A stretch of 31,252 nucleotides of DNA, from IMG/VR virus record IMGVR_UViG_3300032225_000030, positions 1 to 31,252 of that record; one strand, given 5' to 3'. Positions within the stretch are counted from its first letter, which is position 1. The number at the start of each line of letters is the position of its first letter. Position numbers and translations under genes: made by a program. The notes beneath the pieces are model-generated. The model made no database searches, was not told the origin of the DNA, and worked only from the letters and a program-made list of their open reading frames with translations. Below are positions 6,660 to 31,252 of this stretch, piece after piece. This DNA comes from a virus (lineage: Duplodnaviria; Caudoviricetes).

Positions 6660-6917
6660 ATGGCTACGAAAAAGGGTGTTAATCTATCCGTAGGCCGTGG
6701 TGAGAAGTTACCTGTATCACAGGGTGCTGGGCTGACTGCTAAAGGTCGTGCTAAGTACAATGCAGCAACAGGCTCAAATTTAAAAGCCCCACAACCTGAA
6801 GGTGGTAAACGCAAAGATTCGTTTTGTGCTCGTATGTCTGGTATGCCCGGGCCTATGAAGGACGAAAAGGGAAAACCAACACGTAAGGCGGCGGCGCTTG
6901 CAAGGTGGAAATGTTAA
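6660..6917 (+). CDS. Small basic protein, DUF6321-like
   Basis: GLTAKGRAKYN...GSNLKAP...RKDSFCARM...ALARWKC, recalled as a widespread aquatic phage family. Confidence 0.75.
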   Translation: MATKKGVNLSVGRGEKLPVSQGAGLTAKGRAKYNAATGSNLKAPQPEGGKRKDSFCARMSGMPGPMKDEKGKPTRKAAALARWKC

Positions 6918-7111
6918 TGGCTACTAAACCTAAAACCAAGTCAACCGTAAATGCCGCAGGTAACTACACAAAACCTGAAGTGCGTAAGCGGATTGTGTCG
7001 CAAGTAAAAGCGGCTGCAACGCAAGGTACAGGTGCAGGTCAGTGGTCAGCGCGTAAAGCGCAACTTGTTGCAAAGAAATATAAGGCTGCTGGCGGAGGGT
7101 ATAAAGATTGA
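6917..7111 (+). CDS. Small basic protein, N-terminal half of DUF5872-like family (start ATG 6917)
   Basis: NYTKPEVRKRI...GQWSARKAQLVAKKYKAAGGGY; TAATG overlap with upstream gene. Confidence 0.75.
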   Translation: MATKPKTKSTVNAAGNYTKPEVRKRIVSQVKAAATQGTGAGQWSARKAQLVAKKYKAAGGGYKD

Positions 7112-7341
7112 AAGCCCCACAAAAGTCTCTTAAGGATTGGGGTGACCAGAAATGGCGTACCAAGAGTGGTAAACCTTCAAGTAAAACCGGAGAACGGTAT
7201 CTACCTGAAGCTGCAATAAAGGCGTTAACCCCCGCAGAGTATGCTGCTACAACGAAAGCAAAGCAGCAAGGCAAGGCAAAAGGTCAACAATTTGTAAAAC
7301 AGCCAGCTAAAATAGCGGCTAAAACTAGCAAGTATAGATAG
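7108..7341 (+). CDS. Small basic protein, C-terminal half of DUF5872-like family (TTG start)
   Basis: QKSLKDW..QKWRT...GERYLP..AI..L; GGAGG at 7094-7098; TTGA overlap. Confidence 0.75.
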   Translation: MKAPQKSLKDWGDQKWRTKSGKPSSKTGERYLPEAAIKALTPAEYAATTKAKQQGKAKGQQFVKQPAKIAAKTSKYR

Positions 7342-11203: not shown

Positions 11204-12523
11204 ATGGGCATTAAAGTAGCCAATAACGCAAATGCTACGTTAGCCGCTAGTATCGCTAGTTCGGCTACTAGCATCACTGTGACCTCTGGTCAGGGTGCTC
11301 GCTTCCCTACTCTTTCGGCAGGCGACTATTTCTACGCGACTCTGATTGATGTTTCCAACAACTTGGAGATTGTCAAGGTCACTGCGCGTTCAACTGACGT
11401 ACTGACTGTAACTCGTGCGCAAGAGTCAACAACGGCTCGTGCGTATAGTACAGGTGACCGCATCGAATTACGTCTTACGGCACAGACTTTTGCTGATGCG
11501 ACGACTATTACTTCACTTGAGCCACATAAAGTAAGTGACCAAGTAAATAGCTCAACTGGGTACTTTGATTTACCTAATGGTACAACTGCTCAACGACCAG
11601 CATCACCTGATAACGGAATGATGAGGTTTAATACCACTACATCTCAGTCTGAAATATATCAGAACGGAGCATGGGTACAGTTTGCTGTTACTAGTGCCTC
11701 TGCTGTCAGTTATTTGATAGTTGCAGGCGGCGGCCCCGGAGGAAATGTCTCTGGGAATAGTCGTGGTGGAGCGGGTGGTGGCGGTGCTGGTGGATTGCTT
11801 TCTGGGACTCAAGCAGTTTCTTCTTCAACTGCATACACCATTACAGTTGGAGCAGGAGGTGCAGCAACAGCTAGTCCAAGTACTGTTCCATCAAATGGTT
11901 CTCCTTCTTCTTTTTCAGCTGTTTCAACCACAGCACAGGGTGGGGGTGCAGGGGGTACGAATAACATAAATAGCCCTGCTGGTCTTGGTTATTCAGGTGG
12001 CTCTGGCGGTGGCGGTGGTGGAAATGGAACTTCAGCTTCTGGTGGTTCTGGAACTTCTGGACAAGGAAATGCTGGTGGAACTGGAGACATAGCCTCGGCT
12101 ACTTATGGCGGTGGTGGTGGCGGTGGTGGCGCTGGAGCGGTTGGTGGAAACCAAGTAACTTCAACTGCTGGCGCTGGTGGCGCTGGTTTAGCGTCAAGCA
12201 TTTCTGGTTCTAGCGTAACTTATGCAGGCGGCGGTGGCGGTGGCGGTACTGACCAATCTAGTGGAAATGCAGGAGGCTCTGGCGGAGGTGGTGCTGGAGG
12301 AAACAATGGCGCAAATGGAGTTTCTGGAACTACAAACAGAGGTGGAGGTGGCGGTGCTGGTGGCTGTGCTGGTGGAGCAGCTGGCTCAGGTGGTTCAGGT
12401 ATTGTTGTAATTTCCTATGCAAATACTTTGAAACTTGCAACAGCTACAGGTACATATTCTTTTGCCAGTACAGGTGGAAACTATGTTTATACCTTTACTG
12501 GTTCTGGAACAATTACTTTCTAA
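11204..12523 (+). CDS. Glycine-rich tail fibre / receptor-binding protein with N-terminal anchor domain
   Basis: Anchor domain, LPNGTTAQRP...GMMRFNTT linker, then YLIVAGGG...GGSGIVVISY...YTFTGSGT glycine-rich domain. Confidence 0.78.
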   Translation: MGIKVANNANATLAASIASSATSITVTSGQGARFPTLSAGDYFYATLIDVSNNLEIVKVTARSTDVLTVTRAQESTTARAYSTGDRIELRLTAQTFADATTITSLEPHKVSDQVNSSTGYFDLPNGTTAQRPASPDNGMMRFNTTTSQSEIYQNGAWVQFAVTSASAVSYLIVAGGGPGGNVSGNSRGGAGGGGAGGLLSGTQAVSSSTAYTITVGAGGAATASPSTVPSNGSPSSFSAVSTTAQGGGAGGTNNINSPAGLGYSGGSGGGGGGNGTSASGGSGTSGQGNAGGTGDIASATYGGGGGGGGAGAVGGNQVTSTAGAGGAGLASSISGSSVTYAGGGGGGGTDQSSGNAGGSGGGGAGGNNGANGVSGTTNRGGGGGAGGCAGGAAGSGGSGIVVISYANTLKLATATGTYSFASTGGNYVYTFTGSGTITF

Positions 12524-26141: not shown

Positions 26142-29100
26142 ATGGCGACACCAAAGCCCACAGTAGATTCAACAGGGTTCTCCTTTGCTAACACTGGGTT
26201 AGGGGATATGGGGGCAGACTTAAATACTGTCCTCAATCCATATGCTGGTTTCTCCGGTATGCCCCGTACGGGCTTAGATAACCTTGTGCCATCGCAGGTG
26301 GACACCGCTGTTCTTGGGCAACAACTGGTTAAGCAAAGCCAGTTCACTATGCCTGAGATGAAGAAGCCCGCTATCGTAGCGTACAGCCCGTCACAACGTA
26401 AGATGTTTGTGAATGGTGCTACGTTTGAAGCGGACAACGATGCGGCTGCATTACAGACTGAGTCTCTCTTAGGTCAGCCCGGAACTGGTTTACCTCAGGG
26501 TGACTGGGTTCAACTTGATGCTGGCTCATATGGTCAGTACCTCAACACTATTAAGAATCCCGGTCTAGGCAAACTAGCCAAGAAAAACTTTGGCATTGGT
26601 CTTGACAACATGCAGATGTTGGCTGGTCGTGGTTTGCAGTTGGCTGGTGCAGAAGAAACTGGTCAAGGTATCGTTGACCAACAAATTAAAGACCTGTCAA
26701 AGACTTCGCCATATGTTCGTGAGTTCTCTGATGTTAAGGATGCAGGCACTGCCATTGACTGGCTTGTTGCCAACTTTGCTCAGCAAGGCCCGAACATCCT
26801 TGAGTCTATTGCCACTGCGGCTATTGGCTTTGGCTTAGGTACTGTTGCTGGTGGAAACCCATTTGCAGGAGGCGGTGCAGCACTTGCTGGCTTGGCTGGC
26901 AAAGAAGCGTTCAAACAATCTGTTGCTGCTGCTATTAAAAAGCGTGCCGCAGGTGAAGCACTCTCTGCTGTTGAAACCAAACTGTTGCGTGAAGCCGCAG
27001 GTATTGCTGGTGCAACTGCGTTGTCATTCGTGAACAACGTGCAGACAGGTGCATCTGACATCTATGGTGAACTGCGTGACCGTGGTGCTGACCCTAATGA
27101 TGTATCCGCAAAGATGACTGCCCTTGCTGGGTCGTTGCCTTATGCGGCTCTCGAATCTCTCCCTGAGTTCTTGCTCGCCTCTCGTTTGTTTGGTGGTGGG
27201 AAGTTGACTCACGGTGGTACTAGCGTAGCCATGAAGGATATTCAAGGCACAAACATGCTGACCACTGGTATCAAGCGAGGTGGTGAACTTCTTAAACGTG
27301 GTGCTATTGGCGGTGTTGTCGGCGGTACTGCTGAAGGTACAACTGAACTTGGACAAGAGGCTCTACTTGTTGGACTGAGTGGTCAAGACTTCTCTGCTCC
27401 TGATGTACAAAAGCGTTTGCTTGAATCCTTTGCCGCTGGCTTTGGTACTGGCGGCATCATGGGTGCGGCAGCTAACTTACGCCGTGGCCCAATCGGTAAA
27501 GAACCTACCAACCTACTAAACCCCGGACAAACAACTGAGCCATCTTCTTCAGAATCTATTATTCCACCTGCCGTACCTGTTGGCGAACCAATGCAGACTG
27601 GTGGCATGGGTGCGAAACCTAACTTTATTGCAGGCCCTGAGGGTGTACGTGGTGCAGTTCCAAGTGACCGCATCTTCACAGGTGAGGTTGCTCCCGGTCA
27701 ATTTGGTGGTGCTCAAGGCGTTCTTGACCTTGGTGGCGCGACCATTGGTGAGTTGCAACAACGTAGTAACCAGACTGGTGAACTTGCTCCACGCATGGTG
27801 TGGAATCCTCAGACCCAGCAATACGAACAACAAGCAATAACTGCTCCACCATCTGACCGCTTAGCATTGCCTTCGCCTCAAGCCCCCGTTGACTCTCGTC
27901 AAATGGCGTTGCAGTTTGCGCCGCCTGCTCCGTCAGGTGTGCAGTTCACTGAGCAACAGCCTTTGCCTAACACAGTCATGGCTCAGCAGATGCAAGATGC
28001 GCAACGTAAGTTACAGCTAGACCAAGCGTTTGCAGCAATGGCGCAGCAACAAGCTGCACAGAAACAAGCAGACATGCAGCGCTTAGGAGTACAAGCACAG
28101 AACCAACGCCAACTAGATTTTGCTGCACAGCAACAAGCCGCTCAACAACCGCAGCCCCCTGTGATGCCTATGAAACAAGTGCCTGTGCGCCAACCACAAC
28201 AACTATCGTTGTTCAAACGTGGTGAGTTGCCAGTGCCTTCATCGGCTGAGCGTCTACGTCGTGGTATCAATCCACCTGTGGCTGAAACACCAATTACTAT
28301 TGCACGCCCTACCCCCGGAGAGTTCCTCAAGGCAGGGCAGTTGTCTTTGTTTAACCAGCAAGGTCAACCTTCCGTAGCTGCGCTTAAGAGTGCAGGCACA
28401 CGACAACAAGTTGTACCTACTGTGCAGGCAGGTGCGGCCCAGATTAAGCCGACAGGGAAGCCTGTCACGGCTGTAACCGCAACTAAGGCGAAAGCCGCAG
28501 TGCTTAAAAAAGGAGCAGCAAATGCCACTGAAAAAGGGAAGCAGCAACAAAGTAGTCAGCCAAAACATCAAGAAAATAATGGACGAGTACAAGGCGGGGG
28601 GAACGCTGGGCAAAAGTCCACGACCCAAAACAAAAGCGGCAGCAATCAAGCAAGCAGTAGCGGCAAGTCTCTCCAACGCGGGAAGAAGCAAGAAAAAGTA
28701 GTTGCCGCACCTGTTGTAACTACTAAACAGGAGACGCCTCCACCGACTCCACCAAAAGGTGGCAAGGATAAACTTGCCAAGGGTGCTGCAAAAAAGTCCG
28801 AAGCAAAGGCTAAGGCAACTCCTGCCAAAGCCGCTCAGTTGCAGAAAGGCCCTAGCGGTCTAGCTGCAATGGTCAACCAACTTGTTGGCGTGAGAACTCA
28901 AGCCCCTGTAGTTGAAAGTAAAAAGGTCGTTGGAGAAGTAAGTGCTGAAACACAAGCAGAGAATGATGCTCTTGATGAGGCTATCGAAACCCACGAGACA
29001 ACCAAGAATCCTGCCGCTTACGCCGAGGCTTTGTTTGACATCGTCTCCGCATTTGCTCTGGAGTCCAACCCTCGTAAGTACACTCGTAAGACAGCCGAGA

Positions 29101-31252
29101 ACTATCTATCCGATGGCGGCGTACCACCAAGCGACTTCCAAGCTGCGCTCAAAGAGGTTGCACTAAACGAAGAATCTATTGGGACTAAGACTCGTCTGTA
29201 CTCCTTACTGGCTGACCACGGGTTACTCAGTGATGCTGATGTACAAGCGAAGGTTCGTACCCCCGGTGCTAAGGTCAAACAGGCTGCGGTTATTGACGAG
29301 CCTGTTAACTCTAAGGTTACACCTGAGCAACGCTTGGCAGACCTCATCAACAACCGTGATGGCTACCTAAACAAAGGTCAGCTAAATCGCAACGCCCTTA
29401 TCCTCTACGCAGATGTAGACAACGGGCAGTTTGCCGTAGGTGAACGTGGTTTGATTGACGACTTCTTTGATGAAGATGGTGACCCAATCATTGTGCAAAT
29501 TCCCGGAACTAACCGCTATGTTCTTGCCACACAGGCAGAGTCAGAAGTATCCACTGAGGATTACGCTAAGCGTCATGCTGAAGCACGACAAGCGCTGCGG
29601 GAGTTAGAAGACGAGGAATCACAAACAACTTTAGACGACTTGCAGTACGACCCACTCTACGACAATGCTCGTAGTGACCGTGGTGACTTAGAGTTCTTCC
29701 GTGTTGACGGCAAGCCAGCAGCACCAATGAAGACTGGTGCGCTCAAACTTGTTGTAGCAAGAGCGATTTCCAAATACGCCAGAAAGCCTAAGGTTGCAGT
29801 GTTTGCCAATCTTGCTGACATGAAAGCCAGCAACCCCGCTTTGTTTAAGGCGGCAGCGCAAGCACGAAAAGCAGGCGACATCGAGCATGTCAACGCAGCA
29901 GGTATGGCGTGGGGAGATAACGTAGTTCTGTTTGCTGACTTCATTGAGTCTGAGCATCAGGCACGTTTCATTGTGGCTCACGAAACCCTTGGTCACGTTG
30001 GTTTCCGTGGATTGATTAACGGGCGTGCGCTTGACGCAGTGCTCCAACAACTGGCAGACAATGATGAACAACTCAAACATGCCGCCGAAGTCTACGCCGC
30101 AGGACGAAACATCCCATTCACTGAGGCTGTCGAAGAAGTTTTGGCAGACCGAGCCGCAGCCATTGAAACCAATACCATCATCAGATTTTGGAACTGGATT
30201 AAGAACCAACTCAACAAGTTGGGCTTTACGTTTAATGACGATGCGGCTCGATTCCTGATTGGCCTATCACGCCAGTACATCCGTAAAGGAACTGGTCGTA
30301 GTGAATTCAACCTATCAGGTATCTACAAAGACATCAATGCTGCATTGCAAAACGAACTGTCTAGCGTAGAAGTCCTACGCTATTCTTCCTATGCACCACA
30401 AGGGCAAGCAACTTTTGCATTAGGTAACTTGAACCGCAATGCCGCTATTTATGGTGGCATGGAGCGTGTGTTTACCCACATCATTGAAGCCAAGAACAAG
30501 TTTGATGCCGCTCGTACTCAGGGTACAGGCATGAAAATGAACGCTGGCAATATCATGCAAAAGGTCTTTGATGGTATTAAGACTCAAGATAACCTTGCTC
30601 GTGAGAGTAAAGGTCTTGCAAAGATATTTGCCAAGATTCAAGACAAAGCCTCCATGCAGACTGTGCTTAAGACACGCTATGCTGAAGGTACTAAAACTGC
30701 ACACGGCGCACCATTCCTTGGCTTTGGCGAAGGCCCACTGCCTGAGGAACTAACCCGTGCAGGTGAACTCATGGCGTACGCATCTATCTACAAGATGCGC
30801 CAGTACAGTGACTCCGACTTGGATAAGTTCACGAACCCTGTGTTCTATGACTACGAAGCCAAGTTGCAATCAGAAGCGTTTGATGAACTCAAAGCTGCTG
30901 GCTTGATTACACCTGAGGAATTTCAAAAAGGATTTAAGGTTCAGCAAGGTACTGTTGAAAAGAACATGACCCCTGAGGAACAACAACGTCTAGGTGCTGA
31001 GAGTGATAAGCAGGTGGCTTACCTTGAAAACGCTAAGGCTCGCGCATTGGCTCGTCATGACAAGAATATAGCTACTGCTGAAGACGAGGATGCTAAAGCT
31101 GAAGAAGCAGTTAAACGCCGTCGTACTGAAAAGAGTTATGACGCTGACATCAAGGCAACTAAGACTGAATACACCAAGCGTATCAATGCTCCCTCATACG
31201 AAGCTGCCAACATGGTGGATATTAGTACTATCCCTGAGTTGGCATGGATGAA
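26142..31252 (+). CDS. Giant (>=1703 aa, 3'-truncated) polyvalent-type ejection protein with membrane segments, clamp-binding-like motifs and zincin-like metallopeptidase
   Basis: GAGGT RBS, ATG 26142 (MATPKPTVDSTGFSF...), no in-frame stop to window end, hence absent from the track. Gly/Ala hydrophobic helices in first ~450 aa; AHETLGH at 29976-29996 plus AVEEVLAD at 30126. Confidence 0.88.
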   Translation, partial: MATPKPTVDSTGFSFANTGLGDMGADLNTVLNPYAGFSGMPRTGLDNLVPSQVDTAVLGQQLVKQSQFTMPEMKKPAIVAYSPSQRKMFVNGATFEADNDAAALQTESLLGQPGTGLPQGDWVQLDAGSYGQYLNTIKNPGLGKLAKKNFGIGLDNMQMLAGRGLQLAGAEETGQGIVDQQIKDLSKTSPYVREFSDVKDAGTAIDWLVANFAQQGPNILESIATAAIGFGLGTVAGGNPFAGGGAALAGLAGKEAFKQSVAAAIKKRAAGEALSAVETKLLREAAGIAGATALSFVNNVQTGASDIYGELRDRGADPNDVSAKMTALAGSLPYAALESLPEFLLASRLFGGGKLTHGGTSVAMKDIQGTNMLTTGIKRGGELLKRGAIGGVVGGTAEGTTELGQEALLVGLSGQDFSAPDVQKRLLESFAAGFGTGGIMGAAANLRRGPIGKEPTNLLNPGQTTEPSSSESIIPPAVPVGEPMQTGGMGAKPNFIAGPEGVRGAVPSDRIFTGEVAPGQFGGAQGVLDLGGATIGELQQRSNQTGELAPRMVWNPQTQQYEQQAITAPPSDRLALPSPQAPVDSRQMALQFAPPAPSGVQFTEQQPLPNTVMAQQMQDAQRKLQLDQAFAAMAQQQAAQKQADMQRLGVQAQNQRQLDFAAQQQAAQQPQPPVMPMKQVPVRQPQQLSLFKRGELPVPSSAERLRRGINPPVAETPITIARPTPGEFLKAGQLSLFNQQGQPSVAALKSAGTRQQVVPTVQAGAAQIKPTGKPVTAVTATKAKAAVLKKGAANATEKGKQQQSSQPKHQENNGRVQGGGNAGQKSTTQNKSGSNQASSSGKSLQRGKKQEKVVAAPVVTTKQETPPPTPPKGGKDKLAKGAAKKSEAKAKATPAKAAQLQKGPSGLAAMVNQLVGVRTQAPVVESKKVVGEVSAETQAENDALDEAIETHETTKNPAAYAEALFDIVSAFALESNPRKYTRKTAENYLSDGGVPPSDFQAALKEVALNEESIGTKTRLYSLLADHGLLSDADVQAKVRTPGAKVKQAAVIDEPVNSKVTPEQRLADLINNRDGYLNKGQLNRNALILYADVDNGQFAVGERGLIDDFFDEDGDPIIVQIPGTNRYVLATQAESEVSTEDYAKRHAEARQALRELEDEESQTTLDDLQYDPLYDNARSDRGDLEFFRVDGKPAAPMKTGALKLVVARAISKYARKPKVAVFANLADMKASNPALFKAAAQARKAGDIEHVNAAGMAWGDNVVLFADFIESEHQARFIVAHETLGHVGFRGLINGRALDAVLQQLADNDEQLKHAAEVYAAGRNIPFTEAVEEVLADRAAAIETNTIIRFWNWIKNQLNKLGFTFNDDAARFLIGLSRQYIRKGTGRSEFNLSGIYKDINAALQNELSSVEVLRYSSYAPQGQATFALGNLNRNAAIYGGMERVFTHIIEAKNKFDAARTQGTGMKMNAGNIMQKVFDGIKTQDNLARESKGLAKIFAKIQDKASMQTVLKTRYAEGTKTAHGAPFLGFGEGPLPEELTRAGELMAYASIYKMRQYSDSDLDKFTNPVFYDYEAKLQSEAFDELKAAGLITPEEFQKGFKVQQGTVEKNMTPEEQQRLGAESDKQVAYLENAKARALARHDKNIATAEDEDAKAEEAVKRRRTEKSYDADIKATKTEYTKRINAPSYEAANMVDISTIPELAWM
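28522..28701 (+). CDS. Nested 59-aa basic protein (DUF6496 / MPLKKG-like) in the +1 frame of the giant gene
   Basis: AAGGAG at 28510-28515, 6 nt, ATG. Translation MPLKKGSSNKVVSQNIKKIMDEYKAGGTLGKSPRPKTKAAAIKQAVAASLSNAGRSKKK. Confidence 0.75.
   Translation: MPLKKGSSNKVVSQNIKKIMDEYKAGGTLGKSPRPKTKAAAIKQAVAASLSNAGRSKKK

Follow-up and report, generated by a model that had tools for sequence, protein, structure and literature searches.

A small basic phage gene nested in the +1 frame of a putative giant virion-protein gene occupies a dual-coding slot with exchangeable contents

Introduction

Among the described systems closest to the locus analyzed here is the lambda spanin pair, in which Rz1 is a small gene embedded in the +1 frame of Rz, the shared DNA encodes a flexible linker and the embedded gene often goes unannotated (PMC6139136). 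The available portion of that survey of spanins reports no family in which some members are embedded and others separated. Other internal same-strand overlaps, such as E within D of phiX174 and the spacer of the HBV polymerase, illustrate how a disordered linker can relieve the constraint imposed by dual coding; in the account consulted, the HBV spacer is described as a linker that arose de novo, and the classic overprinted de novo proteins as lacking homologues (PMC8227390). A further point of reference is provided by phage polyvalent proteins, which are portrayed as very large, late proteins with HEXXH MPTase and LPD-type domains that are predicted to be packaged and injected (PMC5512222). 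A term search of the accessible text of this last paper returned no instance of "overlap" and only unrelated uses of "nested". In the literature listings searched, no report was found of giants of this kind with small basic genes inside them, nor of allelic swapping of nested genes.

The stretch of DNA under study (hereafter the window) is a 31-kb linear phage fragment (31,252 nt) estimated by CheckV to be 57% complete. The original prediction, made on the letters of the window, placed a complete small basic gene within the last gene of the fragment, and interpreted it as a normally independent gene overprinted in a disordered linker. The follow-up analysis described here examined that gene in its relatives. 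What the prediction had missed is that the site is an exchangeable slot, used by this gene or by an unrelated one.

Results

The giant host gene and its linker

PHROG profiles identify terminase, portal/adaptor, capsid, tail-fibre, lysis and internal-virion genes in the window, which ends in a giant gene that follows an SLT gene and is interrupted by the end of the contig (Table 1). Full orthologues of this host gene encode proteins of about 2650-2710 aa. Judging from its context and motifs, the product is a putative polyvalent or ejection-type virion protein, and may be packaged: it contains a zincin-type HExxH motif, and its full-length orthologue L001 harbors the PLxRFG domain NF032893 (180.7 bits versus a cut-off of 100). 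No LPD Pfam domains were found in the giant host family of the window. A weak, below-cut-off match to the zincin-type Pfam family ATLF (21.2 versus 27.4 bits), seen in a host (L157, 2159-8905) of the second nested family described below, agrees with a HEXXH peptidase domain. Upstream of the slot, the host gene encodes three QL.(L)F motifs, which we take to be candidate clamp-binding motifs; they start at positions 28110, 28200 and 28338, with the last one ending some 170 nt before the nested ATG, and similar motifs persist in the giant orthologues.

The slot lies in a hypervariable, basic and low-complexity linker (net charge +22) that differs in both length and sequence between orthologues. 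Order-promoting residues make up 8% of host aa 801-900 and 5% of the host frame within the overlap, versus 19-33% in the 100-aa blocks elsewhere. A MORN-repeat insert is located immediately before the cassette in one host sub-clade (P0010; L430, L432, L414, L442). The giant gene is split in some relatives (L304, L353, L363/L457; proteins P0012, P0014, P0017, P0019), and the cassette is then found near the end of the N-terminal half or near the start of the C-terminal half; other genes lie between the two halves in L304 and L363.

Two further features of the window were recorded outside the giant gene. Its head module includes five further small Lys-rich stand-alone ORFs (1109-1348, 1345-1533 and 6660-7341), and the two that precede the portal gene have a repeated ITSTNPKM motif in common. 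Between positions 11204 and 14115, a tail-fibre-like gene of 439 aa is followed by ORFs of 117, 117 and 298 aa that repeat the N- and C-terminal PHROG matches of the tail-fibre gene, as if a second fibre had been split.

Table 1. Coordinates of the giant host gene, the nested gene and associated features in the window
Feature	Position	Strand	Remarks
Giant host gene	26142..31252	+	1703 aa, 3' open at contig end; last gene of window
QL.(L)F motifs (three) in giant host, upstream of slot	28110..28352	+	Starts at 28110, 28200 and 28338
Hypervariable basic low-complexity host linker holding the slot	28480..28930	+	About aa 780-930
Shine-Dalgarno (SD) AAGGAG of nested gene	28510..28515	+	6 nt before ATG; host frame reads K-K-G-A
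Nested family A gene (PHROG2423; MPLKKG type), 59-aa basic product	28522..28701	+	ATG start, TAG stop
HETLGH zincin-type HExxH motif of giant host	29979..29996	+	aa 1280-1285

The nested gene and its family

As predicted, the linker contains a complete ORF of 59 codons in the +1 frame of the giant ORF, spanning host aa 794-854, with AAGGAG at 6 nt from an ATG at 28522 and a stop codon ending at 28701, and the giant frame stays open across it, from 26142 to the contig end. The atypical codon usage attributed to the host frame in the overlap is also apparent from direct counts: GGG accounts for 5 of 9 Gly codons inside the overlap versus 14 of 150 outside, GGT for 0 of 9 versus 78 of 150, and AGY for 7 of 9 Ser codons versus 21 of 77. 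The predicted product comprises 13 K, 2 R and 2 acidic residues (pI 10.75, net charge +13). It has neither Cys nor a hydrophobic signal, and holin and endolysin are encoded about 11 kb upstream, on which grounds an embedded spanin pair was rejected.

The peptide had been assigned to a widespread family resembling DUF6496. A profile search did recover a family, PHROG2423, matched over the full length of the peptide (residues 1-59; E 5.7e-9), but the match to DUF6496 itself (PF20106) scored 15.4 bits, under the gathering cut-off of 24. Among 50 members of the family, designated here family A, 12 match DUF6496 at E<=0.1 (best 3.4e-5); on these profile scores, family A is related to DUF6496 and not a member of it at the cut-off. 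No paper naming DUF6496 was found in the literature.

Out-of-frame ORFs of comparable make-up are rare: only 22 others of at least 45 codons, with SD and start codon, were detected in the 557,874 nt of 89 host genes. This rarity and the PHROG2423 match argue that the nested ORF is more than a chance occurrence, and we consider it almost certain that the nested gene is real. A separate out-of-frame ORF of 82-124 codons, near host aa 1835-1875, is shared by L004, L082 and L088.

Contigs from several sequencing runs were compared with the window. A contig of run X1, which may be the run that the window itself derives from, spans the nested-gene region without difference, and contigs of runs X3 and X6 cover the SD and ATG with no difference listed there. 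Just after the cassette (window 28691-28746), 144 other letters replace 54 nt in the X3 contig, suggesting that the 3' border of the cassette is variable within populations. RNA runs X18 and X19 yielded only short contigs, which derive from relatives, cover a portion of the cassette and reveal nothing of strand or expression. Scans for promoters and terminators gave results at chance level, and the RNA structure predicted at the nested start showed nothing special (z 0.09). The product is predicted to fold into two helices (residues 9-25 and 38-52; pLDDT 81.7). No fold or sequence link to solved proteins was found for it (best VIA, Z 5.0); its Foldseek viral matches, among them proteins of 195-554 aa, are almost all uncharacterised, and none reaches E<=0.001.

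Selection on the two reading frames

Ratios of pN/pS were computed over seven pairs, for the flanks and the overlap and for the host and +1 frames. The flanks show values of 0.18-0.24 in the host frame and 1.41-1.57 in the +1 frame, and the overlap values of 1.32 and 0.31, respectively. Selection thus passes from the host frame to the nested one precisely where the two overlap, in line with the dual coding originally proposed. Counts taken over related sequences, which are not independent events, give ratios of 0.27 in the small frame versus 1.96 in the host frame for 31 distinct nested A copies, and of 0.43 versus 1.65 for 46 nested copies of the second family. Differences between the window and L001 in the overlap are distributed 5/5/18 over the small-frame codon positions, and host third-position divergence falls from 0.51-0.59 to 0.09 in the overlap.

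The host frame is held open through the overlap. At wobble sites where T would create a stop codon in the host frame, T is found at 0 of 519 sites in nested A copies versus 285 of 929 in stand-alone copies, these sites again coming from related sequences rather than independent events, and none of 65 stand-alone family A genes is open in the host-equivalent frame. Since T is rare in nested copies at safe wobble sites too (25/715), the recoding is partly attributable to a residue preference of the host.

The wide stand-alone family and the stop-avoiding recoding point to the small gene as the likely older frame, to which the host linker would have adapted, an inference for which the underlying trees are unrooted. 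The linker invoked by the original prediction is present and of low complexity; the term "overprinted", on this view, has the direction reversed. Homologues outside the overlap, which a protein overprinted de novo would lack, do exist, including an annotated stand-alone homologue in phage DSL-LC04.

The slot holds family A, family B or no small gene

In the orthologous host L087, the same site and SD serve another small basic gene, of the MPFKS type and with a GTG start (family B), and the orthologues L083 and L088 have no small gene at the slot. Host orthologues were gathered by their N-terminal 264 aa alone, yielding 158 loci: 41 with A, 66 with B, 12 scored empty and 39 too short, none of them with two hits. 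Intact cassettes were present in 107 of the 119 informative survey loci (two collections). After addition of the earlier loci and dereplication at 95%, 89 hosts were retained, with 31 A, 50 B, 8 scored empty and none with both. The score of "empty" conceals, in L363, a split host with a divergent B nested in the downstream half; L404 is cut by the contig end, and in L353, where the host is split, B lies in the second ORF. B-like cassettes that are strongly diverged (20-29 bits) and in part lack the usual start were seen in L333, L334, L445, L448, L353, L358 and L457, and may represent a third subfamily or decaying copies.

The 78 cassettes with a located start (L353, L358 and L404 being left out of this analysis) all occupy the +1 frame, between host aa 669 and 1139, and begin with ATG (53) or GTG (25). 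An SD-like sequence precedes 28 of the 30 orthologous cassettes with nested A and all 48 of those with nested B (76/78), versus 679 of 11,415 other +1 ATG or GTG codons (5.9%); the strict SD core is found in 73 of the 78, and the spacing is 6-7 nt in 50.

Closely related hosts with different contents delimit the exchanged segment. Between L430 (A) and L432 (B), identity in blocks of 150 columns is 93-100% upstream and 85-99% downstream, and divergence is confined to the stretch from start to stop codon. Start and stop codons are also the borders of divergence in L414/L442 and L317/L393; in L319/L435, the fourth pair, the differing region is far longer. The host tree, from which L304 and L363 were left out for this count, implies 16-17 A/B switches, 11 of them forced by strongly supported branches (shuffled mean 25), and a tree with all A hosts in one clade is rejected (p-AU 0.00066). 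Over 56 aa, L001 and L082 have the same A protein sequence, in hosts that are 24-55% identical. Terminal repeats were not seen at the swap borders when three pairwise alignments were inspected by eye, making exchange by recombination in shared flanks likely. A transposable or self-mobile element was rejected because the swapped block comprises only the segment from start to stop codon, with no repeat seen in these three alignments.

The possibility that A and B are distant homologues was likewise discarded (hhalign probability 0.9%, E 0.058), their predicted helix layouts being different. Net charge ranges from +10 to +15 in A and from +6 to +25 in B. A single A, without B, is found in each of the five near-complete A genomes, and a single B, without A, in each of the four complete B genomes. 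Both genes are absent from two complete genomes (G006, G007), which indicates that the small gene is not essential.

Nested and stand-alone members of both families

The view of family A as usually stand-alone is borne out by the 80 best viral loci for the peptide, 73 of which are not nested and 7 of which are nested in long ORFs (L001-L006, L047). Nesting also occurs in giants without detectable similarity to that of the window (L005/L006, an LPD38 protein; L047; L186). Even in a pattern sample enriched for stop-free copies, the host-equivalent frame is open in only 18 of 120 loci, of which just 6 run at least 99 codons upstream without ending soon after, and most A genes can therefore be considered to stand alone. 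Several independent nestings of family A are suggested by the tree, which requires three changes, but one origin shared by all nested A copies is not rejected (p-AU 0.13). Engulfment through fusion of flanking genes was ruled out as a route, since the gene of about 790 codons that precedes many stand-alone A genes is the portal, with no match to the giant. Cultured phages with the nested form were not seen among the matches; the seven records examined are all non-nested or fused.

Family B is nested in 57 of 81 loci (L092 repeating L087 within this set), mostly in AT-rich giants and often with Arg-rich tails. PHROG1375 is matched at E<=0.01 by 28 of 42 B members. By similarity, the 71 nested loci that have long flanks form 7 groups, or 26 at 50% identity, redundant contigs included. 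At five loci (L097, L106, L108, L120, L142, ~5001), the start of B lies just a few bases from the giant's stop codon; B here directly follows, instead of nesting in, a giant that is homologous to B-nesting giants elsewhere. The host-frame shadow of B matches 286 clusters (50% identity) at E<=0.001, and many of the 150 listed matches are 1,000-3,900 aa long. What appears as a protein motif in hundreds of giant virion proteins is therefore likely the shadow of a hidden gene.

Putative function of the nested product and alternative explanations

We favor, as the probable reading, a dual-coding slot in which a basic gene with its own ribosome-binding site is kept under selection, exchanged from start to stop codon and likely initiated internally, and encodes what is likely a non-essential, head-packaged DNA-binding protein. 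Ribosomes would initiate at the internal SD on the late mRNA as other ribosomes read the host frame through the Gln/Gly/Ser/Lys linker, so that both proteins would be co-expressed late from one mRNA. Homologous recombination in the flanks would swap A for B from start to stop codon, the older small gene having presumably been recoded to avoid host-frame stops, and the small basic product would be packed into the head with the giant protein and bind DNA non-specifically, by charge. Such a non-specific role is favored because A and B, though unrelated, take each other's place in near-identical hosts, with size and charge as their only common properties. The nested product, a putative DNA-binding protein, is small and strongly basic, as are basic virion core (DNA-condensing) proteins.

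The original prediction had proposed a head or DNA-binding gene. Genomic context is consistent with the first part, as head genes occur near stand-alone A; virion presence and DNA binding we infer. When the nearest ORF of at least 120 codons within 900 nt was taken as neighbor, 53 stand-alone A loci showed a head, packaging or connector neighbor in 21 cases, with the portal upstream in 10, along with 3 tail, 4 lysis and 5 DNA-metabolism or other enzyme neighbors and otherwise unknowns, a mixed context given here in raw counts without a background rate. Also in keeping with a place in the head are an A-like module at the beginning of an annotated head maturation protease (phage WCHABP1) and the five loci at which B comes right after the giant. 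A complex prediction for A and the major capsid protein gave no answer (score 0.00) and is not evidence either way.

Instead of binding DNA, the product could bind protein as a head-assembly factor, a scaffold-like helical module with the portal, the giant or the inside of the procapsid as its docking site. The A-like module that forms the N-terminus of an annotated head maturation protease in phage WCHABP1 (L454 2501-2623; 33.3 bits) would accord with this, as would the upstream portal genes, the two-helix model and the fact that B adjoins the giant even when un-nested. The interchange of unrelated A and B between hosts with 93-100% identical upstream flanks is, however, a poor fit to a specific interface and, with two complete genomes lacking both genes, leads us to regard an assembly factor as unlikely. 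We hold it to be distinctly unlikely that the product has an intracellular role instead, in nucleic-acid or ribosome binding, in counter-defence or as a host-specific accessory, with its alleles under frequency- or host-dependent selection. Repeated swaps among near-identical hosts, the empty allele and the A protein shared unchanged by the divergent hosts L001 and L082 would all accord with such a role, and the giants carry features of polyvalent proteins as these are described in the accessible part of PMC5512222. The genes are, however, placed in late structural modules, and no defence-related neighbor or family match was seen.

Translation of the +1 frame need not, in principle, begin at the nested start codon. 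SD-like elements can stimulate ribosomal frameshifting, which would here produce a shortened giant with a basic tail, and the N-terminal half of the giant is indeed a separate protein of 900-1070 aa in some relatives. Frameshifting is nonetheless very improbable, given that the first codon is always ATG or GTG with the SD at initiation spacing, that a slippery-like run is found in only 7 of 78 cassettes, that 24 of the 78 have an in-frame stop at most 5 codons upstream and that stand-alone homologues begin at the same Met. Although all loci were assembled from environmental DNA, an unexpressed vestige, a by-product of host-frame constraint or a mis-assembly is the least credible explanation of all, with the +1 frame under purifying selection, the host frame relaxed in the overlap, intact cassettes throughout most of the survey and a PHROG2423 match.

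Discussion

The reading of the locus as a dual-coding slot for a head-packaged basic protein may, more tentatively, be extended to giant ejection genes at large. These could serve as a general cargo slot for pre-recoded basic cassettes, from at least two unrelated families, that would move as whole units, start codon to stop codon, both between giants and within them and be co-expressed and co-packaged with the giant, and the A, B and empty states might be under balancing selection, since the peptides could condense or shield injected DNA in a host-dependent manner. The locus illustrates a route to overlapping genes that is unlike de novo overprinting: an old gene would enter a linker and then undergo allele swaps, with the outer frame remaining open. 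The A/B swap amounts to a natural experiment, in which A and B likely share a role, and provides a handle on two large, functionally uncharacterised phage families, PHROG2423/DUF6496 (A) and PHROG1375 (B). Nested genes of this kind are dropped by gene callers that allow one gene per locus.

Among known basic virion proteins, phiX174 J and baculovirus P6.9 are small, strongly basic proteins proposed to neutralise packaged DNA. The nested product resembles them in composition alone, no sequence or fold link to them having been found. As to the host, the window's giant resembles the polyvalent proteins, as far as these are set out in the available text, in its HETLGH motif, and the L006 host in its LPD38 domain; unlike them, the window's giant family has no LPD Pfam domain.

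The overlap itself invites comparison with the spanins and with overprinted genes, as portrayed in the portions of the respective sources consulted. Like Rz1 within Rz, the nested gene is fully embedded in the +1 frame and shares its DNA with a flexible linker of the outer gene. Spanins, however, are interacting partners of one lysis machine, unlike the nested A and B genes, and the locus further differs from Rz/Rz1 in that both families occur embedded as well as stand-alone, the host is as large as about 2,700 aa and its site alternates between two non-homologous genes. The host linker is similar to the HBV spacer in that the linker appears to be the newer frame; in contrast to classic overprinting, stand-alone homologues of nested A are numerous, and the gene is moved as a cassette. 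Embedded genes are thus already known, and it is the exchangeable slot that sets this locus apart.
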